Source of the DNA: Gammaproteobacteria bacterium
GTDB taxonomy: Bacteria; Pseudomonadota; Gammaproteobacteria; Eutrophobiales; Eutrophobiaceae
Direction: 5' to 3'
NCBI GenBank assembly: GCA_965198875.1
Contig: CBDAPU010000001.1
Location: forward strand, 131,146 to 195,145
DNA: 64,000 nt
Positions 1,391-22,919 of the stretch are shown here, piece by piece. Within the stretch, counting starts at the first letter, position 1. Every line of letters begins with the position of its first letter. Under the pieces are notes generated by a model. It searched no databases. It was not told the origin of the DNA and saw nothing but the letters and a program-made list of their open reading frames with translations. A program made the position numbers and the translations under genes.

Positions 1391-1404
1391 TACTTCGAAT
1401 GCAA
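1391..1404 (-). promoter_or_regulatory. shared 14-bp cis element TTGCATTCGAAGTA (plus strand reads TACTTCGAATGCAA), oriented toward the bicupin gene
   Basis: Exact 14-mer also found at 1554, 6854, 14965, 21982 and 22906, always 60-140 bp upstream of a gene start and in the gene's orientation. A second GAATGCAA half copy follows 11 bp away at 1408-1415. Confidence 0.5.
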
Positions 1405-1553
1405 AATGAATGCAATATATCCATCGCATCTTCAAGGGATAAGGCGATCTTGGCGTGCGTTTCGCCGTGTTTTGTCTTGCCTTTTAGAGCAATAATCCGA
1501 GTTAGTCCGAGTTTTCGCGCGCATAATAATTAAAGAGAAGGCTTGCGCAATGG

Positions 1554-1567
1554 TTGCATTCGAAGTA
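1554..1567 (+). promoter_or_regulatory. shared 14-bp cis element TTGCATTCGAAGTA upstream of the SSF transporter operon
   Basis: Exact 14-mer. A TTGCGCAA half-site-like copy sits 11 bp upstream at 1543-1550. The element is followed by a TAnAnT -10-like hexamer (TACATA). Confidence 0.5.
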
Positions 1568-1692
1568 CATATTATACATCATTGAAACTTAAAAAGATCC
1601 CGCAGAGAAATACGCAAGAAAGACCGAAACAGGCTGGATGGGATAACGTGATCAGCGGCTAAAATGATGTTGAGATTATCAAGACTTAAGGG

Positions 1693-3306
1693 ATGGCGAT
1701 GGCTGAGTTTGGCACACTGAACTGGTTTATTCTGATCCTCTATATCATCGCCAATCTGGTGCTGGGCTACTACCTCGGCAAGAAGATCAATACCGCCGAG
1801 GATTTTTATATCGGCAGAAAAACCACGCCCTGGTGGGCCATCGGGATCTCCGTCATCGCCACTTATGTCAGTGCGCTCACCTTTCTCGGCGCACCGGCCT
1901 GGTCTTATACCGAGGGCCTGTCCGTCATTGCCATTCACCTTAACTACCCGATCGTGATTTTTGTGGTGATCACCTTGTTCTTTCCGTTTTTCTATAACAG
2001 TGGCGTGGCCTCGATTTATGAGTATATTGAAAGGCGTTTTGGCATGAAGGCGCGCGGGCTTATCTCCTGTATATGGATGCTGTCCCAGACCCTGACCTCA
2101 GGCGCTATTCTGTATGCGACCTCGCTGGTGCTCTCTTTTATCACTGGTATTGATGTTATTCACGCTATTTTCATCGTCACCATCATCGCCCTGATTTATA
2201 CGGCGCTGGGCGGCATTACGGCGGTGATCTGGACGGACGTCATACAGTCCGGCGTGCTGTTTATTGGTGCGATCATCATCGTCTATGCCTTACTGACGCA
2301 AATGTCGCTACCGCTGCACGAGACATTGTTGCAACTGAAAGCAGAGGGGAAAACCAACCCGCTGAATTTCTCCCTTGACCTCTCCGAGGTGACGACCATC
2401 TGGTCCGGCATTATCGCCATGACGATTTTTCATATTAACGTCTACGGCACCAACCAGATGATGGTGCAACGGACGCTGGCGTCAAAAAACATGGGTGACG
2501 CCAAAAAATCCTACATGCTCATGGGCTATCTGGCTTTTTTCATTTACTTCTTCTTTATCCTGCTGGGCGTGCTTTTTTACAGTTACTACGGCGGGCGGCA
2601 GTTTGAAAACGGCAACACCATCATCCTGCAATTTGCAGCGGACTACGGCCTGCCGGGTCTGATGGGGATCATTGCCGCGGCGGTCATGGCCGCCTCCATG
2701 TCCAGCATGGACTCCGCCTTTAATTCTCTGTCCACCGTGGCGACTGTGGATTTCTATCAAAAGTATTTCAGGAAAGACGCCAGCCCACAGCATTATCTTG
2801 TGGTTAGCCGGGTCTTGACGGTGGTCTTTGCCGTTTTGATTATCGTTCCGGCCATTTTGTATTCCAGAAGTGAAGGCTCCGTGCTGGAGGTATTAAGTAA
2901 AGTGGGTTCATTCTTTGTCGGCGCCCAGTTGGGGATGTACGTCCTCGGCTTCTTCTCCAAACAGGCCACGGAAAAAGGTCTGCTGGTGGGCACGGCGGCG
3001 GCCTTTATGGCTGTGGCCTGGGTCGCCACGGATACCGATGTGGCCTGGCCCTGGTATTGCGCTATCGGCGTCATCGTCAGTGTCATCGTCACCCTCATCG
3101 CCAGTTATCTCATTGACGGCGTGCAGATGGAATACTCCGATTACACCATCAAAGGCCAGATCGCCCGATTCAAAAACGAAGGTCTGGATGAAAAAGAAGG
3201 CGGCTGGTATCTGGTGCCCGGCAAGATAGACAAAAGCAGTTATCTTTTGCTGCTCTTCTTTGCATTGGTCATCGCCTTTCTGTTCGCCTTTGAAAAGTTC
3301 ATATAA
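1693..3306 (+). CDS. sodium:solute symporter (SSF/SSS family) transporter
   Basis: 537 aa, multi-TM. Conserved SSF N-terminal region (PWWAIGISVIATYVSALTFLGAPAWSYTEGL). Paralog of 10295-11908, roughly 60-65% identical by eye. Confidence 0.85.
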   Translation: MAMAEFGTLNWFILILYIIANLVLGYYLGKKINTAEDFYIGRKTTPWWAIGISVIATYVSALTFLGAPAWSYTEGLSVIAIHLNYPIVIFVVITLFFPFFYNSGVASIYEYIERRFGMKARGLISCIWMLSQTLTSGAILYATSLVLSFITGIDVIHAIFIVTIIALIYTALGGITAVIWTDVIQSGVLFIGAIIIVYALLTQMSLPLHETLLQLKAEGKTNPLNFSLDLSEVTTIWSGIIAMTIFHINVYGTNQMMVQRTLASKNMGDAKKSYMLMGYLAFFIYFFFILLGVLFYSYYGGRQFENGNTIILQFAADYGLPGLMGIIAAAVMAASMSSMDSAFNSLSTVATVDFYQKYFRKDASPQHYLVVSRVLTVVFAVLIIVPAILYSRSEGSVLEVLSKVGSFFVGAQLGMYVLGFFSKQATEKGLLVGTAAAFMAVAWVATDTDVAWPWYCAIGVIVSVIVTLIASYLIDGVQMEYSDYTIKGQIARFKNEGLDEKEGGWYLVPGKIDKSSYLLLLFFALVIAFLFAFEKFI

Positions 3307-3369
3307 GATCCCGTTTGCGGGCGGTCTTTTGATCTATAAAAATACTGCATCTTTGCCGGATATAACCCA

Positions 3370-4389
3370 TTGACCATGACGTCCACCACCCTCAGAAACA
3401 AAAAGCAGATCAAGACCTGGCTTAATAATATCGCCCATGCCTCCAGGGCTGATCTGACACAACACCTGCAAGCCGCTTACCATGAAGACGTCCACTGGCG
3501 GGGATCACATCCCCTAAATGAAGTGCATGGTCTTGATGCGCTGGAGAAAACCGTATGGGCGCCCTTGCTAGAGGCCTTCCCGGATCTGGAACGGCGAGAC
3601 AATATCATCATCGGCGGTGCTTACGAAGGGCGTGATTATGTCGCTACAGTCGGTCACTATGTGGGCCGGTTTGAGCAGGACTGGCTGGGCATACCGGCGA
3701 CAGGCGGCGTGATCTATCTTCGCTATGGTGAATTTCATCAGCTCATGGATGAGAAGATCATTCAGAGCACTGTGCTGATCGATGTGCTGGATGTGATTCG
3801 GCAAGCCGGGATCTGGCCCTTGCCTCCGGCCCTGGGGAGCCCGGAGATGTGGCCGGCGCCGCTTGGCGTCGATGGCATTTTGCTGAGTGAACAAGATGAG
3901 CGGGAGTCGGCCGCCAGTCTGAGGCTGACCTGCGATATGCAAGCGTCCTTACATAACACCATAACAGAGCGGGAAGCCTTGCTCAGTATGTCGCAGGTGA
4001 ACTACTGGGATCCGAAAATGATGTGGTACGGTCCCTGTGGGATCGGCACAGGGCGGGGCCTTGAGGGGTTTGTGGACTGCCATCAAAGACCCTTTAGAGT
4101 GGCATTTGTGCAGCGCAAGTACGGTGGTCATTACGCCAGGATTGGGGATGGTAAATACTCGGCCACAGGCGGCTGGCCAAGTGTGGTGGCGAGACATGAA
4201 GGCGATGGCTGGCTGGGGATGCAGGCGACGGGGCGTGAGATCAACATGCGGGTGATGGATTTTTACTGCAGTGATCAGGGAATGATACGGGAGAACTGGG
4301 TGCCGATCGACATCATCGATATATTGTTGCAAATGGATGTGGATATTATGGCGCAGCTCAGGGAGCGACCCGCCGGGTACTCCACATAG
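3370..4389 (+). CDS. tandem NTF2/SnoaL-like (predicted ester cyclase-like, COG5485-type) protein, paralog 1
   Basis: 339 aa. Two repeats each ending in a G(I/V)PATG...ENW...D...LL.Q(M/L)G signature typical of SnoaL-like predicted ester cyclases. 64 bp downstream of the SSF gene, likely the same operon. Confidence 0.7.
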   Translation: MTMTSTTLRNKKQIKTWLNNIAHASRADLTQHLQAAYHEDVHWRGSHPLNEVHGLDALEKTVWAPLLEAFPDLERRDNIIIGGAYEGRDYVATVGHYVGRFEQDWLGIPATGGVIYLRYGEFHQLMDEKIIQSTVLIDVLDVIRQAGIWPLPPALGSPEMWPAPLGVDGILLSEQDERESAASLRLTCDMQASLHNTITEREALLSMSQVNYWDPKMMWYGPCGIGTGRGLEGFVDCHQRPFRVAFVQRKYGGHYARIGDGKYSATGGWPSVVARHEGDGWLGMQATGREINMRVMDFYCSDQGMIRENWVPIDIIDILLQMDVDIMAQLRERPAGYST

Positions 4390-4473
4390 CGGCAGGCTGA
4401 TGCGGATCTATCCGTTCACTGGATTTTACTATCACCACCCTGATGGCAACAGGACATAAAGCCGCCGCTGGAC

Positions 4474-5460
4474 ATGGAAAAAAACATGCGCAGTAAAACG
4501 ATCGTCAGTCAGTTTTATCATGCCCTCTGTGATGATGATGAGAGCAGCGCACTCAATCATCTCAGTGCTGAGGTGAGATGGTGTGCCGCACACCCCGTCA
4601 ATGATCGGCAGGGGCATGAGCAGTTTTTGACGGATTATTGGCGACCGATAAAAACAGCGCTCCCCGACATCGAATACAAGCCTTTTATCATGCTGGCCGG
4701 CGAATACGAAGGGCGACAGTGGGTGGATAGTACCGGCTATTTCATCGGCACCTTCACCCAGCCCCTGTTCGATATACCGCCCACAGGTAAAACACTTTAT
4801 CTGCGCTTTGCTGAAATGGCATGTATTGAACACAACCGGATCACTGAATGCTACATCATCCCTGACTTTCTTGACGCCATGCACCAGGCCGGGGTCAATC
4901 CCGTCCGCCCCGCTTTGGGCCATGATGGCCTGATCATGCCGCCCTCCAGCATGGACGGGCTACATCCTGATCATGCCACGGCAGAGCAAAGTGAGAAAAG
5001 CCTGCGGCTCGTCAAGGCGATGCTGGCCGGTCTCGCCCGCTATGACGGCAAGTCACTGCTCAGCATGCAGCAGGAGAAATTCTGGCGCCCGCATTTTATG
5101 TGGTATGGCCCGGCGGGGGTGGGCGCCACCCGTGGCTTGCAGGGCTTTCGGGAGCATCACCAGGGGCCATTCCTGGCCGCTTTCCCGGACCGCTCTGTCG
5201 ATGGCTACCTGAATTATGTCGCCGAGGGTAATTATGTCGCTACCGGCGGCTGGCCACACATGTCGGCAAGGCACACAGGCGATGGCTGGCTGGGCCTGCC
5301 GGCGTCAAACAAGGCATTAACCCTGCGGGTGATGGACTTCTGGCGCTGTGAGGGCGAGCGCTTATGCGAGAACTGGGTCAGTATCGATATGACTCACCTG
5401 TTGAGACAAATGGGGCACGATGTGTTTCAACCACTACGTGACGGGCAGGTGCCTAGCTAA
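4474..5460 (+). CDS. tandem NTF2/SnoaL-like protein, paralog 2
   Basis: 328 aa. Same two-domain architecture (…IPPTGKTLYLRFAEM…; …GLPASNKALTLRVMDFWRCEGERLCENWVSIDMTHLLRQMG). Confidence 0.7.
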   Translation: MEKNMRSKTIVSQFYHALCDDDESSALNHLSAEVRWCAAHPVNDRQGHEQFLTDYWRPIKTALPDIEYKPFIMLAGEYEGRQWVDSTGYFIGTFTQPLFDIPPTGKTLYLRFAEMACIEHNRITECYIIPDFLDAMHQAGVNPVRPALGHDGLIMPPSSMDGLHPDHATAEQSEKSLRLVKAMLAGLARYDGKSLLSMQQEKFWRPHFMWYGPAGVGATRGLQGFREHHQGPFLAAFPDRSVDGYLNYVAEGNYVATGGWPHMSARHTGDGWLGLPASNKALTLRVMDFWRCEGERLCENWVSIDMTHLLRQMGHDVFQPLRDGQVPS

Positions 5461-5482
5461 TACTGGTTTAAGAGAGACAGAC

Positions 5483-6469
5483 ATGCAAGGTTTTGATGCG
5501 GAGTTTATTGATTATGAGCATTATATCTTATCGATCACTGATCGGATCTGGAAAGACAAAAATATCGGCGCCATCTCCCGTTACTACAGCAGGGACGCCG
5601 TGATCCATACCCTGGGCGGCCCCATCAATGGCAGCGAGGCGGTGATGAACGGCACCATAAAAACACTGGCGGCCTTTCCAGACAGGTTGCTCAATGCCGA
5701 GGCGGTGATCTGCACGGGCAATGATGAAGCGGGTTATTACTCCTCCCATCGTATCATCAGTCCTGACATGACCAACCTGGGGCACAGCGAATTCGGCCCG
5801 CCCACCGGCAAGCAGGCAACCGTTCGCACCATTGCCGATTGTTTAGCGAAAGAAAATCAGATCCATGAAGAATGGCTGATGCGTGATAATCTGGCGTTGG
5901 TGCAACAACTGGGTTTTGAGCCACATGAAGTGGCGCAAAAACTGGCGGCGGAAAATCAAAATAACCAACCACTGCATGACTGGCTGGCGGCGGAAATTGA
6001 GCGCATCGCCACCCAGCCCCCTGTGCCACTGTCCGCCAACATAGCGGATCTGAAAACCGACTGGACCGCCTATGCCCGGCACCTCTGCACTGGGCTCTGG
6101 CAAAAGCGGGACGTCTCTGTGATTGACAAGCTCTATGCGCCCGAGGCGGCTGTGCATGCCCCCGCTGGTCGGGAAATGACCGGGCATGGGCAGATCAAGG
6201 CCAGTGTCAGTGAGCTTCTGTCAACCCTGTCGGACACACGGATCAGCGTTGATCATGTCTGCTCGGCCCAGCACAATGATGAGGAAACCGACCTCGCCCT
6301 GCGCTGGGTGTTGACCGGCAGGCATGACAACGACGGCATCTATGGCGCCGCTTCACATAAAACCCTCCTGTACCTTATCGCCACACATCTGCATATCCAT
6401 CAGGGGATCATCACAGAGGAATGGACGGTCTTTGATGAGCTGGCCGTGTTGCAACAAATTTACCATTAA
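5483..6469 (+). CDS. tandem NTF2/SnoaL-like protein, subtype B (paralog of 13457-14614)
   Basis: ORF track gives 5420-6469. The ATG at 5483 (MQGFDAEFIDYEHY) sits just after the previous stop. The N-terminus aligns with 13457-14614 (DYEHYILSITDRIWKDKNIGAISRYYS vs NIIDYIVRITFKIWEERDVEYIGNTYS) and the C-terminus matches as well (ITEEWTVFDELAVLQQI vs IVKEWMLFNELDVMMQI). Confidence 0.65.
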   Translation: MQGFDAEFIDYEHYILSITDRIWKDKNIGAISRYYSRDAVIHTLGGPINGSEAVMNGTIKTLAAFPDRLLNAEAVICTGNDEAGYYSSHRIISPDMTNLGHSEFGPPTGKQATVRTIADCLAKENQIHEEWLMRDNLALVQQLGFEPHEVAQKLAAENQNNQPLHDWLAAEIERIATQPPVPLSANIADLKTDWTAYARHLCTGLWQKRDVSVIDKLYAPEAAVHAPAGREMTGHGQIKASVSELLSTLSDTRISVDHVCSAQHNDEETDLALRWVLTGRHDNDGIYGAASHKTLLYLIATHLHIHQGIITEEWTVFDELAVLQQIYH

Positions 6470-6791
6470 CCCAGCTCGGCTTTCAGGTGAGTTATTTTTC
6501 GTCCATCTTTACGCCCTCTCTTCAAAAAATCCTGCTGGCGTTTGCCCTCATTGATTATTCCGGCATCCGACTAACCTAGCCTATCCCGGTGGAAAACGCT
6601 CCAATAAGGTTTCGAATGTAAGACTTAAAACTTGAGTTACTTGCTATGTGATGTGAAGGAATTATTAAGGAGCCTTTAGAATAAATCGGCCCGTAATCTG
6701 TCAGAGGATACAAACCTAAAAATGCAATTTTATTTTTATAATAAAACCAATAATTTTAAGAGATATTTTTCTTGACGGCGCATCCCTGCAC

Positions 6792-6802
6792 ACCACAGGA
6801 AA
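6792..6802 (-). promoter_or_regulatory. shared element 2 (TTTCCTGTGGT), reverse-complement copy
   Basis: Plus strand reads ACCACAGGAAA, about 130 bp upstream of the TonB-dependent receptor start. Confidence 0.3.
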
Positions 6803-6853
6803 CTCCGATTAAACCAGAGCTTGCCTTAAAATCAGGCAAAACCCGGGTATTGC

Positions 6854-6867
6854 TTGCATTCGAAGTA
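6854..6867 (+). promoter_or_regulatory. shared 14-bp cis element TTGCATTCGAAGTA upstream of the disrupted TonB-dependent receptor
   Basis: Exact 14-mer. The flanks (atTGCTTGCATTCGAAGTAtATTTTATG) are nearly identical to the element upstream of the paralogous receptor at 22906. Confidence 0.55.
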
Positions 6868-6928
6868 TATTTTATGTGAGGATGTGCGCTATTCAAACTC
6901 AACAAACATGCAGGAGCCAGTGCTGAAA

Positions 6929-9325
6929 ATGACTACTTACCTTACCCCCCCCCCCCCCCCCCCCCCAAGTTTTATCATTGCTACGGCTGTTTACTCTCTC
7001 CCTGTGCGCTGTGGTCGGTATATCCGCCTATGCCGCTACTGTACTTGAGGAAGTGACCGTCACCGCACAGAAACGTGAACAAAGCCTGCAGGATGTGTCT
7101 GTTTCGGTAACCGCTGTAGACGGCGACATGCTCACCGACAAGGGGATTGTAGACGTCAGTCGGCTCGATGTGCTGGTTCCCGGTTTGATATTTCAACAGG
7201 CGGGTAACGATGTAAAATTTACTATGCGTGGCGCTCGCACCGGCCAGGTTGAGGCAAATGATGTATCAGTCGCCTTTTACACTGACGGTATTTATAGACC
7301 TCGCCATGGTCAGGCGCTGTCCGGGTTTATCGATGTTGAGCGAGTCGAGGTGCTACGTGGTCCGCAGGGCACCTTATTTGGTCGTAACTCCTATGGCGGC
7401 GCATCAACGTGATCAGTAAAAAGCCTTCCACCGAAGAAATCGACTATGGCGCAGCTTTCACTGTAGGTGACTATGAGCATTTACGCGGTGAGGGTTTTGT
7501 CAATATTCCTTTTAGCGATAAAGCGGCGCTTCGTGTGACCGGTGCTCGGGAAACCCGCGATCCCTATGTTGAAAATACCCTGATAGGTGATAGTGGTGGG
7601 CTTAAAGATGCCGATAACTGGTATGTACGGGGTCAATTCTCATTTGAATTTAGTGAAGACCTGAGTGTCTTACTTCGCGCCGAGCATTGGCAAGATGACG
7701 CCAATGGTAATGCCAGTTTTGGATATAAAGTACTTGGAGTGCCCATTAATTTAGCCACCGGTTTAACCAATGGGGTGAGCGGTACACTTCGAAATCGTAT
7801 TGGTCGGAGTGATGAATGTACAGGTACCTGTGGTCGAGCGGGAGCGGGTTTCGACTTTACCGCAACTCCAGGCCTGGATACTGCTCAGCCTACAAATTCC
7901 GACCCTTTCGAAATAGCACGCGATTTTGAGCCTCAGCGTGACATCAAAGAAGATACCCTGGCGGCGGAAATTAACTGGCGTGGTCTTGGTTTTGCCGACG
8001 TAAAAATCAATGTGTCCTATATGGATTATTCTGAATTACGACTCGGTGACACTGACTTGTCCGGGTTTCCGTCAATTATCGCAGGTAATGATATCACCTC
8101 AGAAACGACTACACAGGAGATTCAACTAACTTCAAGTCACGATGGCCCCTTGCAGTGGGTTGCAGGTCTTTACTTTCTACAGGAAGACCTGACCAATGCG
8201 TTTTTATGGATGGACATCAGTACATTGGTGGACAACGCCCCGGACCCGGCCGCTGATCCGATTTATACCTGGGCATCATGGATGCGGCAAATACGTTTGG
8301 ATACGCGCTCGCATGCGGCTTATAGCCAGGGCACTTATTCCCTGCTGGATGAGCGAATGCGGATAATTGGCGGGATACGTTACACCTATGATAAACGTGG
8401 ATGGGATATCTTTGGCCCGGGCATGGGTAGTGCATTAGAAGGTGCATTTGCCGCCGATTTGTCTGCGCTGTCGTTTAACACACCCTCTCTTGAAAACAGT
8501 CGGCAGTCGTGGAACAAGATCACCTGGAAAGCCGGTATAGAATGGGACATTAACGATGATGCAATGATCTATTTTACAACATCAACCGGTTTTCTTTCCG
8601 GCAATGCCCAGGGGGCGTTCAATGGCGCTGGTAATTATGATGAGAGACTGGTTGACGCCTATGAACTTGGGCTTAAGAGCACCCTGCTTGACGGCGCTAT
8701 GAGGTTTAATCTCGCTGCCTACTACAATGATTATGCTGATCTATTGTCTACTTCCTTTGTCGATGTCGGCGGCACTACCCTGGCTTTTTCTGACAATGCC
8801 GGCGCAGCCCATGCTTTCGGTGTCGAGCTTGAAGTGGATTGGACGCCAATAGAGAGATTAAGTCTGGGGCTACGTGCCGCTTACACCAGTGCGGAATATG
8901 ATGAATTCATATTAACTAATGTCTTCGAGGAAGGTGGCAGTACTATCAATGGAGTTGCTAATCTGTTTTCCCTGGATGGCGCTGAAATAATCCAGTCTCC
9001 GGATATCACTGCTACCTTACTTGCCGCCTATGATTTTGATCTGGGTGATAAGGGGACATTGACGCCAAGCGTAGCGTTTTACTACTCTGATGATTATCGC
9101 AATGCAGACGCACCGTTTTTCTTCGGCGTACAAGAGAGCTTCACCAAAACGGATCTGGCATTAGGTTGGACTTCATTAAATGGCTACTGGAATGCACAAG
9201 CATACGTGCATAACCTGGAAGATGAGGAAATTATGCTTGATGCAACGCGCTTTGGCGGTAATGTCGCAATAGCAGATTTCGCCCCTCCGCGTACATTTGG
9301 CTTTCGAATGGGATATCGTTTCTGA
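6929..9325 (+). pseudogene. TonB-dependent receptor, disrupted by two frameshifts (poly-C tract near codon 7; 1-nt loss near 7405)
   Basis: The ATG at 6929 encodes MTTYLTPPPPPPP..., paralleling MITYLTPPPQVSLLPRLFTL of the intact paralog at 22983. The receptor frame resumes at 6978 (LLRLFTLSLCAVVGISAYA, plug domain), out of phase across the 22-C run. Second break: GGAST* at 7410, where the paralog and the downstream frame (ISKKPSTEE) imply GGAINVISKKPS. One missing C in gcgc(c)atc would restore it. The 7409-9325 frame carries the beta-barrel and C-terminal TonB box region. Confidence 0.7.
6945..6966 (+). repeat. homopolymeric poly-C tract, 22 nt, inside the 5' coding region of the TonB-dependent receptor
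   Basis: Directly counted: 22 consecutive C from 6945 to 6966. The paralog at 22983 has 10 C at the equivalent position, in frame (PPP). Confidence 0.9.
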
Positions 9326-12434: not shown

Positions 12435-13442
12435 TCATTCACATCGGTTAATATCTCGCATTCTCTCGAGAACATCCAGGCCCTGCTGTTTCAAAAAATA
12501 AATCAGATCGATAAATATCCAGTTCTCGGCAAGTTTATCGCCTTCACGCCGGTAGATATCAACAACACGCATTTCCGAGCGCACGCTGGATGCCGGAAGC
12601 CCCATAAAACCCCCGGTTGGTTTCGCTGACAGGTTTGCCCAGCCGAACCAGCCGGCAAAACTGCCCTCGGCAAGGCGACAAATATGACCATTGAATTTGA
12701 TACTATCCAGACCCTGGCTAAACGGCCCCTGATGTTGTTCCTCATACCTCTCTATGGTATAGGTCGCACCGATCCCCGCCGGCCCAAACCAGAGCATATC
12801 GTTGTGCCAGGTTTGGGCGAGTTCATCCTGAGTTGAGTTAAATCTTTCTGTGCTTGTCAGGTCATCACACATCCGCTTGATCAGCGCCAGAGTTTTAGCC
12901 CCTTCTGCCGGAGCCTGGTGAGCAAAGAGCAAGCCATCATGGGTGCGTGGTCCGGGAGTGATGATGGCGGCGCCTGTCTGTAGTGGTAGCGGACTTAAAC
13001 CGGCCTGCTGCATAATACTGATAATGTCGCAGAATAAAGCAGTCTCGCTGATCTTTCCGTCAGTAATTCGATTGAACTCGGCATAACGCAGGAACCCCAT
13101 TTTTCCTGTAGATGGAATACCAAGCCAGTCCTTGTCGAACAGACCCAGTAAATGTCCCATGGAGCAAACCCACTCACTGGAAAAATTGTCCACATCATTT
13201 AATCCCGCCATGAAAATATCCTGACGCCTCTGTATCGCCGTGAATGATTCTCGGAACGGCTTCCAGAATACATCTGCTACGGCATTTGCACCCTGCTGTT
13301 CGTAGAACGGATGCATACCCCGCCAGTAATAATCGCGCGTGGTATAGCGCTTTAGTACTTCAGCAATATCATTTTCCTGTGCCGCATCCAGCTCATCGTA
13401 ATACTGTCTTACCAGGGCCTTGCTATTTTGAAAATTAGTCAT
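12435..13442 (-). CDS. tandem NTF2/SnoaL-like protein, paralog 4
   Basis: 335 aa. Two repeats (…GIPSTGKMGFLRYAEFNRITDGKISE…; …GLPASSVRSEMRVVDIYRREGDKLAENWIFIDLIYFLKQQG). Confidence 0.7.
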   Translation of the reverse strand: MTNFQNSKALVRQYYDELDAAQENDIAEVLKRYTTRDYYWRGMHPFYEQQGANAVADVFWKPFRESFTAIQRRQDIFMAGLNDVDNFSSEWVCSMGHLLGLFDKDWLGIPSTGKMGFLRYAEFNRITDGKISETALFCDIISIMQQAGLSPLPLQTGAAIITPGPRTHDGLLFAHQAPAEGAKTLALIKRMCDDLTSTERFNSTQDELAQTWHNDMLWFGPAGIGATYTIERYEEQHQGPFSQGLDSIKFNGHICRLAEGSFAGWFGWANLSAKPTGGFMGLPASSVRSEMRVVDIYRREGDKLAENWIFIDLIYFLKQQGLDVLERMRDINRCE

Positions 13443-13456
13443 GGTTTTTTACTCAA

Positions 13457-14614
13457 TTAACTACGCGCAACAGCGATCTGCATCATGACATCGAGTTCAT
13501 TAAACAACATCCATTCCTTAACGATATATCCGTTGGTGATCTGATGTTGCGTGATCCCCCAGATCTGGACTTCACAACCTGTAGGTACGCCATAAATGCC
13601 TGCGCCTGTATGCGTACCTATGGCACTCCAGCGCTCCGATGTCAGATACCCCTGCTCGTCATTGCCCATCCAGTAAACCTCATCAACCTGCAGTTTTAGA
13701 TCCGGAAAAGCGCTTATCAATGATAAAAGAAATCCCTGGTAAGATTTGTGTCCGGTAAAAGTCCGGTTAGTTGGCCCATGAAATCCAAAGTTTGGATCAT
13801 AACTATCCACCAGCGCTGCATAGTCCCGACTGTTCCAAAGCCTATTGAAGTTTTCACGGGTGAATGCATCCACATCAAAACCTGAAACCGGGGAACTGAT
13901 GGATATTGCCTGCACGGGACTCGCCGCACAACGTAATTCCTGCCACGTTACCCTATCCCTCGGCCAGCCGGCAGGTGCCTCCCTGATCATCCTGGTAACT
14001 ATCTCATCCAGATCATGACCGAGTTGCAACAACATACTTGAGTTGTTGTATAAAACATGTTCAAGAAAAATCACATTGTCCAAAGCAACACAGTTAGCAA
14101 TGACTAATACGTCAACATGCCTGTTGGTAGCGAGACCATATTTACTGTCGCCGTCGTTTGTTCCGCGGATGATGGTACGATGTGATGTGTGATACCCCAC
14201 TTCATCATCGCCAGCCCAGATAATCTCATCGGCAAGCAACTTAATATCAGAGAACGCGCCAGTTGTATGGTAGGTGTCCACGATGATTTTTTTATTTCCT
14301 GATTGCAGGCCATAATCGTCATAGACTTGGGATGTCTCCGAGTATGTGTTGCCGATATACTCAACATCTCGCTCTTCCCAGATTTTGAATGTAATACGCA
14401 CAATATAATCGATAATATTCCGGTAAGTCCCCTCAAAACCAGACATAGACTGCCTGGGGCCAAAATCATCCGGTATACGTTTTTCACTATCGGTAAAACC
14501 ACCACCGAAACCAGTACGGCCAGCATAAGCATCCAGTGAAATATTGTAATCAGTTGGCATATGTTCTCGCGCTAATGGCTCAGCCGTCTTTTTAGCAATC
14601 ATGTTTGATTCCAT
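13457..14614 (-). CDS. tandem NTF2/SnoaL-like protein, subtype B (paralog of 5483-6469)
   Basis: 385 aa. Shares the subtype-B signatures (…NIIDYIVRITFKIWEERDVEYIGNTYS…, …HTGAGIYGVPTGCEVQIWGITQHQITNGYIVKEWMLFNELDVMMQIAV) with 5483-6469. Confidence 0.65.
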   Translation of the reverse strand: MESNMIAKKTAEPLAREHMPTDYNISLDAYAGRTGFGGGFTDSEKRIPDDFGPRQSMSGFEGTYRNIIDYIVRITFKIWEERDVEYIGNTYSETSQVYDDYGLQSGNKKIIVDTYHTTGAFSDIKLLADEIIWAGDDEVGYHTSHRTIIRGTNDGDSKYGLATNRHVDVLVIANCVALDNVIFLEHVLYNNSSMLLQLGHDLDEIVTRMIREAPAGWPRDRVTWQELRCAASPVQAISISSPVSGFDVDAFTRENFNRLWNSRDYAALVDSYDPNFGFHGPTNRTFTGHKSYQGFLLSLISAFPDLKLQVDEVYWMGNDEQGYLTSERWSAIGTHTGAGIYGVPTGCEVQIWGITQHQITNGYIVKEWMLFNELDVMMQIAVARS

Positions 14615-14689: not shown

Positions 14690-14964
14690 TGTCCTGAGTT
14701 AAGTGTAACGAACGCGTTGCCCTATTTCTTCCTGACCAAATGAGACGGCTAAGGGCCATGTACGGGATTATCCATCATTTAATGGGGATGATAATGTACT
14801 TGCGATGCAAAAATAATTCAAAAAATCATAATATCATTCAATAGAGGGTAGATCATCCAAAATGATACCCTAAAGTGAAAGCTATTTATTTAATTGAATA
14901 TCTCAAAGCGTTAAATTGATTATTTTACTTTATATCGTGAACATATCCTTGAGATATTTTTATT

Positions 14965-14978
14965 TTGCATTCGAAGTA
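14965..14978 (+). promoter_or_regulatory. shared 14-bp cis element TTGCATTCGAAGTA upstream of the amidohydrolase gene
   Basis: Exact 14-mer followed by TATAAA, about 130 bp upstream of the 15107 start. Confidence 0.5.
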
Positions 14979-15023
14979 TAAAAACCGTGCTTTTATCTAA
15001 GGATAAGTCTGATTAATTCAGAA

Positions 15024-15037: not shown

Positions 15038-15106
15038 GGGATGCATCGTCTTTAAGACAAGTCACGGATGGGCTTGTTCAGGGCTTCCTTAATGTCGGGT
15101 TCGCAT

Positions 15107-16018
15107 ATGCAGGATATTGATTTCATCATTGACGCCCATCATCACCTCTGGGACTTGCAGGCTTGTCACTATCCGTGGTTAATGGCCAAGGGGGTTAAGC
15201 GCTTTTTTGGTGATCCGACCCCTATTCAAAAAAATTATTTGATAGAGGATTTTTTTGCTGACACAGGAAACCTGCCTGTCACTGGCTCAGTGCATATTCA
15301 AGTAGGGGTTAAGGAGAACCAGGCCCTGGATGAGACGCTCTGGCTGCAATCTGTCGCCGACTCGAAAACAGGCGGGGGTTTTCCCCAGGCTATTGTGGCG
15401 TTCTGTGATCTGTCGGCGGATGATGCACTAGCCCAAATAGAGGAACACCGAATCTGTCCTAACCTGCGAGGCATTCGGCAGATCATCGGTCGCTCACCGA
15501 AGGAAGACCGGCATACCCATAGCCGCGCCCTGATCGATGATACTACCTGGAGGGAAAACCTGTGCCGTCTGGCGGATCATGGATTGGCCTTTGATCTGCA
15601 ACTCATTCCTGAGTACATGGGCGCTGCCTATGGAGTTTTGCGTAAGGTTGCCGATACTCACATTGCGCTGTGTCATTGCGGCTCGCCGTTTGATCAGAGC
15701 AAGGCGGCGCTGGATTTCTGGAAAAAGGAAATAAAGAAACTGGCGCAACTGCCGAACGTTTTCTGCAAGCTCTCCGGCTTTGGCATGTTTGACCATCACT
15801 GGTCAAGCGAGAGTATCAGGCCGATTATCGACACTGTGATTGAGGTCTTTACCCCCGAGCGTTGCATGTTCGGCTCCAATTTCCCCGTGGATAAACTCTA
15901 TAGCGATTATCAAAGACTTTGGCATGCCTATTCTGAAATCACCCATGCACTCAGTAATGATGAGAAGCATGCCCTGTTCTTCGCAACGGCCAATGAATTT
16001 TATTCATTAAACCTGTAA
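15107..16018 (+). CDS. amidohydrolase-2 family (TIM-barrel metal-dependent hydrolase/decarboxylase-like) enzyme
   Basis: The ATG at 15107 gives MQDIDFIIDAHHHLWD, the hallmark HxH start of Amidohydrolase_2 / ACMSD / LigI-type enzymes. The ORF track offers a longer 15068 start. Confidence 0.7.
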   Translation: MQDIDFIIDAHHHLWDLQACHYPWLMAKGVKRFFGDPTPIQKNYLIEDFFADTGNLPVTGSVHIQVGVKENQALDETLWLQSVADSKTGGGFPQAIVAFCDLSADDALAQIEEHRICPNLRGIRQIIGRSPKEDRHTHSRALIDDTTWRENLCRLADHGLAFDLQLIPEYMGAAYGVLRKVADTHIALCHCGSPFDQSKAALDFWKKEIKKLAQLPNVFCKLSGFGMFDHHWSSESIRPIIDTVIEVFTPERCMFGSNFPVDKLYSDYQRLWHAYSEITHALSNDEKHALFFATANEFYSLNL

Positions 16019-17600: not shown

Positions 17601-18751
17601 GCGCCCTTTTTCCAGAGTTGTGCAGAGGCCATCTGTGCGCCTGCCGCCAGGGTCGCCAGTTTGGCGTAGACGATGTCTTCATCCACAGTGCCGAAACCGG
17701 CAAAGGTGGAGAAACCACAGTCGGTGCCGGCAAGCACACGTTCACGCCCGACTATGTCGGCAAATCGGCAGATACGTTGCGCCACCAACCGGGGATGCTC
17801 AATGAAGTTGGTTGTTGAGTCGATGACGCCGGGAATGAGTATTTTGCTCTCCGGGATCCTGGTGTTTTCAAACACGTCCCATTCGTGGGCGTGCCGGGGG
17901 TTGGCCGATTCAAATAACAGTGCATCGGGTTTGGCTTTCAGGGCAATGGGCAATACCATCTCCATCGGCGCATCCCGATGATGCGGCCCTTCATAATTAC
18001 CCCAGCACACATGCAGGCGCATTTTATCGGACGGAATATTACGCACGGCATCGTTCAGCACATCCACATGCAGGCTGGCCAGTTCAACATAGGCTTTATC
18101 ATCCTTGTCTTTGAACAGGGTATGTCGGCCAAGACCCAGATCCGGCGAGTCCAGTTGCAGCAGATAACCGGCGTCAACAATGGCTTCATACTCAGGCCGC
18201 ATGGCCTCGGCCAGTGCCGCCAGATAACGCCCATGATCGGGATAATGCTGATTGGGCTGGAACAGGGCGATCACGCCGGGCGATGCGGCGTTCATGAATC
18301 CCTCGACCGGCTTATGCAAGGCGATGGCGCTGGCGAAATTTTTTAAGTCCCTTTGTAACGGCGCCCTGTCCTTAACCCTGATCTCGCCCACGCAACAGGG
18401 TCGTTTATACGTGGGTGTGCCGCCGGATTGCGCCAGACGTTGCAAAAAATCCGGATAGTCTTCCAGGTCCCCGGGCGGTGTTCTTGGGCTGTCCCCGGCA
18501 AAACCGGTGATCCGATCTTTTATGTAAGTCGCATAACTTATCTTACTCATCTCCCCATCACTGACGACATCGACTCCGACTTCAACCTGACGCCTCACCA
18601 CACCTTTAACCGCCTCGGCGATGGTGGCGTGTAATGCCGTTGCATCATTTGCCTCGCCATTTTCCCGGGCGAATATGCCGTCGGTCACTGCTTGTGATCG
18701 GGGCAGGCTGCCGACATGGGTGATCAGTATTCTATCTTTACTGGTTTTCAT
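17597..18751 (-). CDS. cobalamin-independent methionine synthase II (MetE C-terminal domain)-like methyltransferase fold protein
   Basis: 384 aa. N-terminal ITHVGSLPRS, a putative zinc-ligand pattern (H..C in HVCWGNYE, C in GTDCGF), and a length typical of stand-alone MetE-like proteins. Confidence 0.7.
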   Translation of the reverse strand: MKTSKDRILITHVGSLPRSQAVTDGIFARENGEANDATALHATIAEAVKGVVRRQVEVGVDVVSDGEMSKISYATYIKDRITGFAGDSPRTPPGDLEDYPDFLQRLAQSGGTPTYKRPCCVGEIRVKDRAPLQRDLKNFASAIALHKPVEGFMNAASPGVIALFQPNQHYPDHGRYLAALAEAMRPEYEAIVDAGYLLQLDSPDLGLGRHTLFKDKDDKAYVELASLHVDVLNDAVRNIPSDKMRLHVCWGNYEGPHHRDAPMEMVLPIALKAKPDALLFESANPRHAHEWDVFENTRIPESKILIPGVIDSTTNFIEHPRLVAQRICRFADIVGRERVLAGTDCGFSTFAGFGTVDEDIVYAKLATLAAGAQMASAQLWKKGA

Positions 18752-18767
18752 GGTTACTCTGCTATCA

Positions 18768-19478
18768 TCAAGCCGCCTGCAGCCATCTTCTCATCGCCTC
18801 ATTAACCGCTTCCGGCCTCTCCATAGTGGACAGATGACCGCACTCCTCTATTAAAACCAGCTTGCTGTTTGCAATCATTGAGGCCATTTCTTTATGGATA
18901 TTGATGGGACATAATTTATCTTCTACGCCACAGAGCACCAGGGTTGGCGCAGTGATCCCCGCTAATGTACTCCGACTCTCCACTCTACTCTTTATTGCCG
19001 CACATTGTCTTTCAAAAACCTCGACGCCTAAATCCATGGCCATCTGCATCACTGCATCCAGTATCGCCTGATCATGTTTGTTGGCCTCGGCAAGATACAG
19101 CGGCTTGAGCGCATCGGCCACGACTTGCTGAAGCTCTCCGGCAATCGCTCTTTGTAATAGTTGATCTCTCTGCGTTGAGCGATCGGTTATATCGGCGTGA
19201 TCATTGGTATCCAGCAAGGCCAGGCGGGTGATACGCTCCGGCGCCTGGCGCCATAATTCAAACACGACAAACCCGCCCATGGACAGGCCGGCAACGGCAA
19301 ATCTCTCCGGCGCCTGTTGCAGGATATGGCTCGCCATGGCGGCAATCGAGTCATATGAAGACACATCGGCCACACTCAGCGAGCGGCAATGGGTTTGTAA
19401 GGGCTCCCATTGTGCCGACCACAGACGAGCATCACACATCATGCCCGGTATTAAGATGAGATGTTCTTCACCACGCAT
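18768..19478 (-). CDS. alpha/beta hydrolase fold protein
   Basis: 236 aa. Nucleophile elbow GLSMGG, with a C-terminal histidine region (ECGHLSTMERPEAV). Confidence 0.65.
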   Translation of the reverse strand: MRGEEHLILIPGMMCDARLWSAQWEPLQTHCRSLSVADVSSYDSIAAMASHILQQAPERFAVAGLSMGGFVVFELWRQAPERITRLALLDTNDHADITDRSTQRDQLLQRAIAGELQQVVADALKPLYLAEANKHDQAILDAVMQMAMDLGVEVFERQCAAIKSRVESRSTLAGITAPTLVLCGVEDKLCPINIHKEMASMIANSKLVLIEECGHLSTMERPEAVNEAMRRWLQAA

Positions 19479-19533
19479 TTCTTTAGGGTTTTAAGAATAC
19501 TTCAAATGCCGTTATTTAAGAGAAATATTTCGC

Positions 19534-20595
19534 TCAGGACAGGCGCGCCGAGCCGCCGGGCAACATGTCGCCGGAGAAGACCCGCATTTCAGGTGATTTG
19601 TCTGGTTCTTCCACCCTGTCTAAAATCATATCGACTGCTGCCTGTGACATTTGCGCCACCGGCTGGCGGATGGTGGTCAGGTTGTAACCGGACCAGATTG
19701 CCGGCGCCACGCCATCGAACCCGACCACGGATATATCATTCGGCACCGCCAGAGAGAAGTCTTCACGCAAGGCGTCAATACAGCCAATCGCCATCACGTC
19801 ATTGGCGCAGATCACCGCATTCAGATCGCCGCTCAGCCCCCTCATCAAGGCATGAACCCCGGCCCGGCCGCTCCCATAGGTATAATCACCCTGGACGATG
19901 GGTGCCTGATCAAAGCCGAGAGCAATCAGGCGATCACGCGCGCCAGCCGTGCGCTGAACACTCACCAGCGAGTCTTCCGGACCACTGATCACGCCAAATG
20001 ATGTATGTCCGGCATTGACCAGCTTATTGACCAGCATCCTCTCCCCGGCCTCCTGATCGCAACACACCGCACTGACCGGGCGGTCCTGAATCGTGCGATT
20101 GAAAAATACCAGCGGCAGACCTCGCTGTTCAAATTTATCGATTTGCTCCAGAGAGAAGGTGCTCGCCACCACAACCCCATCCACCTGATACTGAAACACC
20201 TGCCCGATGATCTGGTCAATATCCCGCTCCCGATGCAGGGTAAACAGCAACACATGGACGCCACGACTGGAAAAACCCTGGTTAAGCTCAAAGAGCACTT
20301 CCGGATAATGCAGGTTGGTGAAGTCAGATAAAATCACCCCTACCAGGTTGGAGCGACGGGTGATCAGGCTTCTGGCGATGGCATTGGGCTGATAACCTAA
20401 TTTATCCGCCGCCTTTATCACCTGCGCGCGCATCTTTTTGGAAACACTGGCGCCGGGCTTGAAACACCGGGACACGGCCGATTGCGATACGCCCGCCAGT
20501 TTTGCAACATCATAGGAGGTGACCTGCTGGGCTTTTTTAGCCGGGGATGTGGCCTGCGCCGCCAGTTGCAAGACAGAGGTGTCGGTTTTTCTCAT
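19534..20595 (-). CDS. LacI family transcriptional regulator
   Basis: 353 aa. N-terminal HTH (VTSYDVAKLAGVSQSAVSRCF) followed by a periplasmic-binding-protein-like sugar-binding fold. Sits inside the minus-strand catabolic operon. Confidence 0.85.
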   Translation of the reverse strand: MRKTDTSVLQLAAQATSPAKKAQQVTSYDVAKLAGVSQSAVSRCFKPGASVSKKMRAQVIKAADKLGYQPNAIARSLITRRSNLVGVILSDFTNLHYPEVLFELNQGFSSRGVHVLLFTLHRERDIDQIIGQVFQYQVDGVVVASTFSLEQIDKFEQRGLPLVFFNRTIQDRPVSAVCCDQEAGERMLVNKLVNAGHTSFGVISGPEDSLVSVQRTAGARDRLIALGFDQAPIVQGDYTYGSGRAGVHALMRGLSGDLNAVICANDVMAIGCIDALREDFSLAVPNDISVVGFDGVAPAIWSGYNLTTIRQPVAQMSQAAVDMILDRVEEPDKSPEMRVFSGDMLPGGSARLS

Positions 20596-20604
20596 CGCAC
20601 CACG

Positions 20605-21897
20605 TCAGGCGGCCTTGTCCGTAAAGCGCCGCACCCGTATGTCCGCCTGCTCTTTGTGTCCCATGAACCCCTCCAGCTCACACAGGCGCGAGCAGTACTC
20701 ACCCACCTGCACTGAGGCTTCCCGGCTGATCTTCTGGTAGGTGCAGGTCTTAATAAACTTGCCCACCCACAGACCGCCGGTATAACGGGCGGCCTTCCTG
20801 GTCGGCAGGGTATGATTGGTACCGATGACCTTATCACCATAGGAGACGTTGGTTTCCGGCCCTAAAAACAAGGCCCCGTAATTGCTCATATTGTTAAGAA
20901 AATAGTCCGGCTCTTCGGTCATCACCTGCACATGCTCAGAGGCGATCTCATCGGCCAGCTCTCGCATCTCTTCATAGGAATCACAGACAATGACCTGCCC
21001 ATAGTCCCGCCAGGCCGGCCCGGCAACATCGCCAGTGGGCAAAATGCTCAACTGTCGCTCGACCTCCTGCATGGTCTCTTTGGCGAGTTTCTCAGAATTG
21101 GTCAGCAGTATCGCTGGTGAGTTCGGCCCATGCTCGGCCTGCCCCAGCAGATCGGCGGCGCACAGCTCACCATCCACGGATTCATCGGCAATGATCAGGG
21201 TTTCAGTCGGCCCGGCGAACAAGTCAATCCCCACGCGGCCAAATAGCTGGCGTTTTGCCTCCGCCACAAAGGCATTGCCCGGCCCCACCAGCATATCCAC
21301 TGGCGCAATGGTTTCCGTGCCGAGGGCCATAGCGCCTACCGCCTGCACCCCACCCAGGCAGTAAATTTCACTCGCACCCCCCATATCCATAGCCACAACG
21401 ATAGCAGGATGGGGCTGGCCCTGATTGGGCGGGGCGGTAGCGATAATGCGCTGCACGCCGGCGACTTTTGCCGTCACCACGCTCATGTGGGCGGAGGCGA
21501 CCATAGGATAACGCCCCCCGGGCACATAGCAACCAACGCTGTTGACGGGAATATTCCTATGCCCGAGCACCACGCCGGGCAGGGTTTCCACCTCCACATC
21601 CTGCAAGGCGTCCCGTTGATGTTGGGCGAACCGGCGGATCTGGCTCTGGGCGAATTGAATATCTGCTTTGACCTGCTCTGATACCTGCTCATAACAGGCC
21701 CTGATCTCCTCCGTGGTCAAGCGGAAGGAGGCCGGGTTCCAGTCGTCAAACTTCTCTGAGTACTCCCGCAAGGCGCCATCGCCCCTTCGGCTGATCTCGC
21801 CCAGAATATCTTCAACGGTTTTTCTTACCCTGGCGTCCTGTGTTGCGACCTCTTCCCCGGATCTTCCGGTTTTCAAATACGTGACCATGTCTTCCAC
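20605..21897 (-). CDS. histidinol dehydrogenase (HisD) family NAD-dependent dehydrogenase, catabolic context
   Basis: 430 aa. HisD-family blocks ([30 protein letters not shown]; [16 protein letters not shown]). It is first in a catabolic operon rather than a his operon, so a HisD-like 4-electron alcohol-to-acid oxidase (e.g. sulfopropanediol dehydrogenase type) is plausible. Confidence 0.8.
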
Positions 21898-21981
21898 CTC
21901 CAGATAAGGTCTTTGTTTTTACATGCGCCCATGATACAAATGAAAGTTCCAGCTTGCGAGGGCGCACATCCTGGGCGATTA

Positions 21982-21995
21982 TACTTCGAATGCAA
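21982..21995 (-). promoter_or_regulatory. shared 14-bp cis element TTGCATTCGAAGTA, oriented toward the HisD-like operon
   Basis: Plus strand reads TACTTCGAATGCAA. On the minus strand the element is followed by TATAAT (plus-strand ATTATA at 21976-21981). 85 bp upstream of the HisD-like start and 18 bp before the divergent SDR start. Confidence 0.5.
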
Positions 21996-22012
21996 TTTCA
22001 TAATGAAAATAA

Positions 22013-22777
22013 ATGACTGAACGGGCAAACTCCCGTGCAGGAGAGCAAAACCTACTGGCTGGTCGGCAGGCACTGGTGACCGGCGCCAGCCGGGGTATAG
22101 GCCGCGCCTGTGTACAAACCCTGGTTGACGCTGGTGCAAAGGTAGTCGCCGTTGCCCGTAGCGCTGACGCCCTGGCGGCCGTTAAATCCTATGCGCCGGA
22201 TAACATCGAAAGCTGGCGGATGGATGTGCAAACGGCGGATTTCTACGACCGGCTCGAGGCCATGACGCAGCTTGATATCCTGATCAACAACGCCGGCACA
22301 AACAAGCCCCAGCCCTTTGCGGAGGTCGATGCAGATACCCTGTCTTCTATGGTTAAGCTCAACATTGAAGCGGCATTTAAGACAGCACAATCGGCGGCCA
22401 GAGTGATGTTGAGAGCGCAGATCAAAGGAGCGATCATCAACATGTCATCGCAGATGGGGCATGTGGGTGCGCCGGAGAGGACGGTCTACTGTATGACGAA
22501 ACACGCCGTTGAAGGGCTCACCAAGGCCATGGCGGTTGAACTTGCGCCCCGGGGCATTCGCATCAATGCCGTCGCCCCCACCTTCATTGAGACGCCCCTG
22601 ACGGGGCCCATGCTCGATGACCCTGGGTTTAAGGCGTCAGTCCTGGCGCGGATCCCTCTGGGCCGTGTGGGACAGGCGCAAGACATTGCCCGGGCCGTGC
22701 TGTTCCTGGCCTCGGATCAAGCACGCATGATCACTGGCGAGAGCTTAAAAATAGACGGTGGCTGGACGGCGCAATAG
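22013..22777 (+). CDS. short-chain dehydrogenase/reductase (SDR) family oxidoreductase
   Basis: 254 aa. Glycine-rich cofactor loop TGASRGIGRA, the NNAG motif, and a catalytic YCMTKHA (YxxxK). Confidence 0.85.
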   Translation: MTERANSRAGEQNLLAGRQALVTGASRGIGRACVQTLVDAGAKVVAVARSADALAAVKSYAPDNIESWRMDVQTADFYDRLEAMTQLDILINNAGTNKPQPFAEVDADTLSSMVKLNIEAAFKTAQSAARVMLRAQIKGAIINMSSQMGHVGAPERTVYCMTKHAVEGLTKAMAVELAPRGIRINAVAPTFIETPLTGPMLDDPGFKASVLARIPLGRVGQAQDIARAVLFLASDQARMITGESLKIDGGWTAQ

Positions 22778-22905
22778 CTACTTTCATTTCATAGACTTAG
22801 CGAAATACCCCTCTATTTTCACTGCCAAAATGGCGCACCGGGCTGTTGCAACTGTTGTTTTTTTACACATTTTTAGTCGTCATTTGCGAAAGTGAAACAT
22901 AATGC

Positions 22906-22919
22906 TTGCATTCGAAGTA
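22906..22919 (+). promoter_or_regulatory. shared 14-bp cis element TTGCATTCGAAGTA upstream of the intact TonB-dependent receptor/sulfatase operon
   Basis: Exact 14-mer followed by CATTTTATG, 64 bp upstream of the 22983 start. Confidence 0.55.

Follow-up and report, generated by a model that had tools for sequence, protein, structure and literature searches.

We analyzed a 64-kb stretch of contig CBDAPU010000001.1 from a Gammaproteobacteria bacterium (hereafter the window; G+C 51.6%), whose left part holds a gene island in which a 14-bp element, TTGCATTCGAAGTA, recurs upstream of the genes, together with a LacI-family regulator gene. Coordinates are those of the window, and protein families are mostly from Pfam. 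The island comprises a bicupin gene (319-1335, -), an operon for an SSF transporter and three tandem-SnoaL proteins (1693-6469, +), a gene for a TonB-dependent receptor (TBDR1, 6929-9325, +) that is interrupted at a poly-C tract, a SnoaL-SnoaL-SSF operon (14614 down to 10295, -), an Amidohydro_2 gene (15068-16018, +), an operon encoding a HisD-like dehydrogenase, the LacI-family regulator, an alpha/beta-hydrolase, a MetE-like protein, an HpcH aldolase and a racemase (21897 down to 16121, -), an SDR gene (22013-22777, +), and an operon for a second receptor (TBDR2), a sulfatase, a SnoaL protein and a thioesterase (22983-29240, +). Beyond ~29.2 kb, the window carries housekeeping genes, including those for an aminoacyl-tRNA synthetase, a DinG-like helicase, EF-P, ParC, and ParE.

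The preliminary description of this DNA had reported six exact copies of the 14-mer, all intergenic and each placed upstream of a gene in that gene's orientation. Coordinates and strands were confirmed (1391-1404(-), 1554-1567(+), 6854-6867(+), 14965-14978(+), 21982-21995(-), and 22906-22919(+)), and 100 dinucleotide-preserving shuffles of the window contained no copy at all. All six lie between open reading frames and face the adjacent gene, 56-126 bp from its start codon (bicupin, 56 bp; SSF, 126 bp; TBDR1, ~61 bp from the ATG at 6929; Amidohydro_2, 90 bp; HisD-like, 85 bp; TBDR2, 64 bp). The TAnAnT-type hexamers said to follow each copy are also present, sharing the final TA of the 14-mer (TAAATT, TACATA, TATATT, TATAAA, TATAAT, and TACATT).

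Taken with the rest of the hexamer, the sites are O1 (1387..1404, -, TTGCATTCGAAGTAAATT, with its 14-mer at 1391-1404) before the bicupin gene, O2 (1554..1571, +, TTGCATTCGAAGTACATA) before the SSF-SnoaL-SnoaL-SnoaL operon, O3 (6854..6871, +, TTGCATTCGAAGTATATT) before TBDR1, O4 (14965..14982, +, TTGCATTCGAAGTATAAA) before the Amidohydro_2 gene, O5 (21978..21995, -, TTGCATTCGAAGTATAAT) before the operon headed by the HisD/HpsN-like gene, and O6 (22906..22923, +, TTGCATTCGAAGTACATT) before the TBDR2-sulfatase-SnoaL-thioesterase operon. Scored with a position weight matrix (PWM) built from the sites collected in this study, they reach 28.6, 26.7, 25.4, 23.9, 24.6, and 27.4 bits, respectively, and no other position of the window attains 16 bits. 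Each is a hybrid in that its left half is TTGCATTC and its right half the variant GAAGTA(n)A.

Six identical copies within 23 kb, two of which (O3 and O6) stand before receptor genes that are paralogous and have similar leaders, might be thought to reflect a generic repeat, such as a repetitive extragenic palindrome (REP), a bacterial interspersed mosaic element (BIME) or a miniature inverted-repeat transposable element (MITE), or else a recent promoter duplication or gene conversion. However, the 40-bp flanks of the six copies share 27-31% pairwise identity, which is the random level, so that conservation is confined to the element and no duplicated segment surrounds it. The coding sequence of the window holds no copy, and the remaining ~35 kb with the housekeeping genes contains neither a copy nor a PWM match of 10 bits or more.

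Two degenerate copies were also found, both at orthologous promoter positions. The first (TTGCATCGCAAGTAcattat / TTGCATCGCAAGTA; 14797-14810, -) precedes the SnoaL-SnoaL-SSF operon, has its central CG shifted by 1 bp, and scores below 9 bits. The orthologous promoter in a related locus (L025) reads CTGCATTCGAAGTACATTAT, and the window copy is probably a weakened or decayed operator. The second (CGGCATTTGAAGTA; 19498-19511, -) lies after the stop codon of LacI and before the start of the alpha/beta-hydrolase gene, where three other loci (L026, L031, and L028) have intact sites and a close relative (L201, 97% identical) reads CGGCATTCGCAGTA. This comparison marks the second copy as the relic of a putative internal operator and promoter that other loci have kept intact.

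A further box, (A)GGATG(T)GCGC, stands ~10-20 nt downstream of O3, O5, and O6 (6877-6887, 21957-21968(-), and 22929-22939) and is conserved in L003 and L036, where it reads aGAATGCGCC or AGATGCGCCC. Before the HisD-like gene, the box makes up the 5′ side of a hairpin in the leader (TGCGCCC...GGGCGCA, 21925-21965). It has no Rfam match and may act as an additional regulatory element or as a leader structure. When the window was scanned in full for Rfam families and tRNAs, no match was returned, and no known RNA element was recognized in the leaders.

The site family in related loci and metagenomes

The window had no match in Escherichia coli genomes, and look-ups of its exact LacI, amidohydrolase, and bicupin proteins gave no identical entry. 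To collect related loci, the island LacI protein was searched against one genome per species, giving a protein-anchored set of 80 loci (best homologue, 79% identical). The exact 14-mer was present in 23 of them. Among its carriers are uncultured Gammaproteobacteria, Lysobacterales, Woeseiaceae, Steroidobacteraceae, Cellvibrionales, and Glaciecola, as well as the alphaproteobacterial Caulobacterales, Parvularcula, and Marinicaulis and one Acidobacteriota chromosome. These loci share a common gene set: HisD-like (66-84% identity), MetE-like, HpcH, Amidohydro_2, bicupin, SDR, tandem SnoaL, SSF, and TBDR. Exilibacterium tricleocarpae R142 (L004) and Sphingomonas colocasiae JCM 31229 (L034) are carriers that have been cultured. 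The comparison of orthologous promoters that the preliminary description had proposed placed the same site at the bicupin, SSF, and SDR/HisD-like promoters; in most related loci it lies ~40-60 bp before the bicupin start, and the SSF orthologues are targets in other loci too.

The left half TTGCATTCG alone was then used as an anchor, which leaves the right half unbiased. It gave 110 matches in the window together with 42 loci that have a LacI orthologue of 47% identity or more (724 kb), against four in the 38 loci whose LacI paralogues are at most 42% identical (684 kb). With the PWM at 16 bits or more, the corresponding figures were 180 and 3. The right halves fell into the classes AAGTA (46), AATGC(AA) (25), AAGTC(AA) (12), CAGTC (5), and AATTC (5). 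The right half AATGCAA completes a perfect 16-bp palindrome, TTGCATTCGAATGCAA (25 strand-hits), and a second perfect palindrome, TTGACTTCGAAGTCAA, occurs in orthologous loci. Half-site spacing is fixed in all variants, and CG occupies the dyad in the six window copies and in ~180 related sites. The half-sites TTGCATTC, TTGACTTC, and TnTACTTC are thus interchangeable around an invariant TTC/GAA core (central CG), and the family consensus is TTG[CA][AC]TTC/GAA[TG][GT]CAA, a LacI-type even palindrome with a central CpG. The preliminary description had doubted a LacI-type operator, as only TTCGAA is symmetric in the window copies; the site family as a whole turns out to be a classical even palindrome centered on CG. 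The 14-mer is thus most likely the conserved core of a 16-18 bp putative LacI-type operator, of which the window copies would be a hybrid-half-site variant.

The two forms of the site differ in where they occur. The protein-anchored set contains 46 exact 14-mers. For 43 of these, a gene in the same orientation as the element starts within -60 to +250 bp downstream; 26 copies are forward-only and 2 reverse-only. Of the perfect palindromes, 7 of 11 perfect palindromes lie in divergent intergenic regions, typically between the SDR and HisD-like genes. In the window, 18 bp separate O5 from where the divergent SDR gene starts, and ATTATACT at this site can be read as TATAAT or, on the opposite strand, as TATACT; the orthologous SDR/HisD-like regions have a perfect palindrome at the same position. 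O5 therefore probably serves both divergent units.

These forms also bear on whether the element could be the recognition sequence of an alternative sigma factor, for instance one of the extracytoplasmic function (ECF) type, or another non-sigma-70 promoter, an option that the preliminary description had raised. An asymmetric, strictly conserved and directional element at a fixed distance from gene starts is what such a promoter would look like. Yet the element also exists as perfect palindromes and as hybrids in both orientations, no sigma or anti-sigma gene or domain was found among the island proteins, a sigma-70-like TTG-N17-TAnnnT arrangement is phased around it (see below), and its conservation across phyla goes together with that of the LacI reading head. 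We consider an alternative-sigma promoter very unlikely.

Because the protein-anchored set was built on the LacI gene, co-occurrence with this gene is there partly by design, and a reciprocal search was run in which the 18-mer TTGCATTCGAAGTACATT alone, as DNA, was compared with metagenome contigs. At least 120 contigs were matched. Among the matches listed, 103 of 120 contigs carry homologues of island genes (98 the specific families) and ~10 resemble chance or eukaryotic matches; the gene downstream of the site, again among the matches listed, most often encodes a bicupin (40), SnoaL (21), TBDR (8), or SSF (7) protein. A LacI homologue was present on 37 of the contigs listed, and all 33 with the helix-turn-helix (HTH) in view read VSQSAVSR[CVA][FY].

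This confinement of the DNA-anchored matches to the cluster, together with copies at orthologous promoters in distant phyla and the random flanks described above, makes a generic repeat or a recent duplication extremely improbable; the spread through coding sequence and the rest of the genome that the preliminary description had named as the mark of such a repeat was not seen in the window. Two of these lines of evidence, conservation across phyla and the metagenome search, support its proposal of a dedicated regulon with the element lying over the promoter spacer and -10 region in the manner of an operator.

In six alphaproteobacterial loci (L019-L022, L038, and L044, at ~5020-5215), two operators stand ~34 bp apart before a TBDR gene (xTGCATGCGAAGTCAA and TTGCATTCGAAGTA), and a third site faces a divergent SnoaL gene. 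Such pairs, not seen in the window, could allow cooperative binding or looping. A literature string search for TTGCATTCGAA returned unrelated primer matches only and found the motif in no relevant paper, and a keyword search for the gene-cluster combination gave no match.

The LacI-family regulator

The regulator gene (19534-20595, -) encodes a protein with Pfam LacI and Peripla_BP domains, which we propose to be a repressor. Its recognition helix reads VSQSAVSRCF and its hinge, PNAIARSLITRRSN, contains a leucine; its closest relatives in the PDB are LacI-family repressors such as CcpA, RbsR, PurR, and LacI. The gene starts 9 bp past the HisD-like stop codon, within the operon headed by O5, and the regulator is therefore expected to be autoregulated. 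It is the only regulator found in the island, and no other regulator gene recurs in the related loci. None of the NCBIfam equivalog cutoffs was reached (RbsR, 177 of 382 bits; CytR, 153 of 436; PurR, 140 of 501), and of more than 4000 homologues at E <= 1e-60, every name listed among the best 120 is the generic "LacI family". By sequence, then, this would be a local repressor/operator system of a known type, whose regulator is no equivalog of any named one.

Conservation of the protein follows that of the site. Among orthologues that share ~47-79% identity overall, the reading head (TSYDVA..AGVSQSAVSRCFKPGASVS ... PNAIARSLITRRSN) hardly varies, while paralogues at 42% identity or less, from loci that lack the site, have other recognition helices (VSLSAVSRVF, VSQPTVSRAF, VSQATVSRAF, and others). 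On this and the other evidence, we judge with good confidence that the island LacI-family repressor is the factor acting at the 14-mer.

In Sphingobium and Sphingomonas orthologues, the hinge is AMASGM or AIARGL instead of AIARSL, and the sites have a central ACGT rather than TCGA (TTGCATACGTATGCAA; L030 19637-19656; L034 16906-16925 and 18076-18093). Both loci also carry a second LacI paralogue. With two loci, this is no more than suggestive of co-variation between protein and DNA.

In a survey of 1303 LacI-family regulators, the operators were even palindromes of 16-22 nt in 1251 cases and had a central CG in 1173; sites typically lay 30-140 bp from the start codon, and local regulators were autoregulated (PMC4052901). 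The system described here agrees with every feature of LacI operators that can be examined computationally: an even palindrome in this length range (for the site family; the window copies are hybrids), a central CG of the kind contacted by the hinge-helix leucine, a distance of 56-126 bp to the start codon, a co-localized and apparently autoregulated regulator gene, and reading residues that are conserved or vary together with the site. On these grounds, we call the element a putative operator. It resembles the local systems of the LacI/PurR/RbsR type in the makeup of the regulator (HTH, hinge helix, and periplasmic-binding-protein-like effector domain), in the 16-bp even palindrome with central CG of the family, in its spacing from the genes, and in the place of the regulator gene within its own cluster. 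Unlike them, the window copies are a fixed hybrid (TTGCATTC plus GAAGTA) whose right half also provides the first bases of the -10 hexamer, and the targets (HpsN-like dehydrogenase, MetE-like, bicupin, tandem SnoaL, sulfatase, and TBDRs) belong to no obvious sugar pathway.

The lac O1 operator of Escherichia coli is likewise asymmetric, with a strong and a weak half, and lies over the core promoter or transcription start, where repressor and RNA polymerase compete. It differs in having an extra central base pair and in looping with auxiliary operators, whereas the spacing here is that of an even palindrome and no auxiliary operators were seen other than the alphaproteobacterial TBDR pairs.

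CytR operators, with the half-site GTTGCATT or TGCAA-N2-3-TTGCA, also place a TGCA three bases from the dyad (PMC3454398). However, CytR tolerates variable spacing and direct repeats and is a CRP-dependent anti-activator, whereas the spacing here is fixed and the island protein falls far below the CytR model cutoff. Neither score nor spacing places these sites in a CytR regulon, and no evidence of CRP sites came up, although these were not searched for.

Predicted promoter architecture and proposed mode of action

Among the 45 unique exact sites, TTG stands at offset -11 from the element in 44%, and at no other offset between -30 and -3 in more than 9%. The bases that follow the element fit TA-n-A(71%)-n-T(64%), and the TTG, where present, is 17 bp upstream of this hexamer. 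This phasing suggests that the element fills the 17-bp spacer of a TTGnnn-N17-TAnnnT promoter and supplies the first two bases of its -10 hexamer. At O1, the predicted promoter (-) would have its -10 at 1387-1392 (TAAATT) and its -35 at 1410-1415 (TTGCAT); at O2 (+), the -35 would be TTGCGC (1543-1548) and the -10 TACATA (1566-1571). The half-site-like copies 11 bp apart that had been noted in this divergent region are real, being TTGCAT and TTGCGC themselves, and are better read as these -35 hexamers than as half-sites. We infer that the GTA variant has been selected as a right half-site that remains tolerable (GAAGTAnA vs GAAGTCAA) and at the same time begins the -10, which would make the operator directional.

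Another assignment, in which the TTGCAT within the element serves as the -35 for a -10 located 16-18 bp downstream (cAGGAT in O3, O5, and O6), was rejected, since across the 45 sites T shows no enrichment at the first position of such a -10, in contrast to the TTG at -11 and the 3′-end TAnAnT.

In this arrangement, a LacI-type dimer occupying positions -24 to -7 or thereabouts would lie over both spacer and -10 hexamer and should exclude RNA polymerase, so that repression relieved by an effector is expected. A pathway metabolite might bind the periplasmic-binding-protein-like domain and release the repressor, which would induce at least six transcription units: the bicupin gene; SSF with the three SnoaL genes; TBDR1; Amidohydro_2; the HisD-like gene, lacI and the enzyme genes that follow, the divergent SDR gene probably being included; and TBDR2 with the sulfatase, SnoaL, and thioesterase genes. 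As it would repress the O5 operon, the regulator would also limit its own synthesis.

Several observations weigh against a local LacI-type repressor acting in this way. The window copies are symmetric over TTCGAA alone, palindromic forms being found only in other genomes. The LacI-anchored set is circular in part, which the DNA-anchored search mitigates, but in that search a LacI gene was present on only 17 of the 31 contigs of at least 8 kb. If the island continues to the left of the window, that part could encode another regulator. A sigma-70 consensus scan called a promoter at none of the six sites, with counts equal to those in shuffled sequence, and three of the six (O3, O4, and O6) have no recognizable -35, which makes a requirement for an activator possible.

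The first of two explanations that draw on these observations is that another DNA-binding protein, encoded outside the window or represented by a cluster protein without an HTH, acts at the site while lacI merely travels along. The assignment of the transcription factor does rest on co-occurrence, and 14 of those 31 long contigs have no LacI gene in the stretch covered. Such a protein would nevertheless have to account for the LacI-family signature (the 16-bp even palindrome with central CpG, matched by a Leu-containing hinge helix) and for a reading head that is invariant exactly where the site is invariant and changed in paralogues whose loci lack it, and no further regulator gene is seen in the island or recurs in related loci. 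We regard this explanation as improbable.

The second is that the site serves activation, with the LacI-type protein or another factor recruiting RNA polymerase to promoters that lack a -35. Both the missing -35 hexamers and the failure of the consensus scan at all six promoters would suit this idea. However, a dimer over the spacer and -10 should clash with sigma, a TTG is phased as a -35 at many of the orthologous sites, and LacI-family regulators mostly bind DNA free of ligand and repress (PMC4052901). Activation thus seems just as improbable as action by another protein, and repression by the island LacI-family regulator remains the interpretation that we favor.

Reach of the proposed regulon

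The HisD-like protein (20605-21897, -) is closest to HpsN (417 bits, vs 291 for the best true HisD). HpsN is diagnosed by the motif GRY[A/S]H, in which the sulfonate is bound by the last histidine (PMC11382572); the island protein, 66-84% identical across phyla, has GRYPM at this place. For this reason we did not name it HpsN, the 2,3-dihydroxypropane-1-sulfonate (DHPS) dehydrogenase; its sequence probably marks a distinct subfamily, with a third substrate class within the HisD/HpsN family. No island enzyme reached an NCBIfam equivalog cutoff, no PDB relative was found for the bicupin, and the MetE-like and amidohydrolase proteins have distant PDB relatives only.

Six paralogous SnoaL-type proteins of 328-385 aa are encoded in this one island (3370-6469, 12435-14614, and 27748-28782). 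Most have two SnoaL/NTF2-like domains, none has a signal peptide, and the paralogues repeatedly adjoin SSF transporters in all related loci.

Poly-C tracts follow closely on the TBDR start codons (MTTYLTPPPP...), with 22 C in TBDR1 (6945-6966) and 10 C in TBDR2 (22999-23008). The 22-C tract is one base out of frame, which explains the "disrupted" TBDR1, and the 10-C tract preserves the frame. An 11-C run also occurs within a third TBDR gene (46082-46092), and TBDR2 orthologues carry tracts of 13, 14, and 17 nt at the same place (L003 20708-20720; L036 6782-6795; L201 7581-7597). These lengths look like slipped-strand phase variation, although they may instead stem from homopolymer errors in the assemblies. 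L201 (ENA ERZ25067590 ctg28770), whose LacI is 97% identical, has a rearranged island without the sulfatase, with TBDR2 in fragments and the Amidohydro_2 gene joined to the SSF/SnoaL operon; O5 and O6 are kept exactly.

Among the housekeeping genes of the window, an N6/N4 DNA methyltransferase gene is followed by a CfrBI-like restriction endonuclease gene (38587-40901, +). This type II restriction-modification pair appears to be unrelated to the operator.

Elsewhere, the operator precedes genes that are absent from the window, coding for an MTHFR-like protein, a Pterin_bind methyltransferase, a glyoxalase-fold protein, a secreted alpha/beta-hydrolase (esterase-like), an MFS transporter, and an L-serine dehydratase. 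Loci with such extra targets are L006, L009, L010, L028, L033, L047, L048, L084, L094, L095, L100, L114, L146, L162, L163, L172, L175, and L182. One may speculate that the MTHFR-like and pterin-binding proteins act with the MetE-like protein in methyl transfer to tetrahydrofolate from a substrate that is possibly esterified or sulfated; our guess for this substrate would be a flavonoid or a methoxylated aromatic, possibly sulfated.

With a little less than even confidence, we put forward a joint reading in which the operator defines a widespread and so far undescribed catabolic regulon of marine and sediment bacteria from several phyla. As parts of this one reading, the GTA form would be a selected fusion of operator and -10, with palindromes reserved for divergent promoters, and the members would include the HisD/HpsN subfamily without the sulfonate-binding histidine, a possible demethylation module (MetE-like, pterin-binding methyltransferase, and MTHFR-like), up to six cytoplasmic tandem-SnoaL enzymes, a sulfatase, and TBDRs with hypervariable poly-C tracts.

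With this finding, an apparently undescribed gene cluster that is frequent in marine and sediment metagenomes gains a concrete candidate regulator and operator. As the operator is rich in information and conserved across phyla, it may serve to trace the limits of the regulon in any genome, and the genes that it adds (MTHFR-like, pterin-binding, esterase, MFS, and serine dehydratase) narrow the search for the substrate and the inducer. It would also illustrate cleanly, in a natural system, how sharing bases with a -10 hexamer reshapes a LacI-type palindrome.

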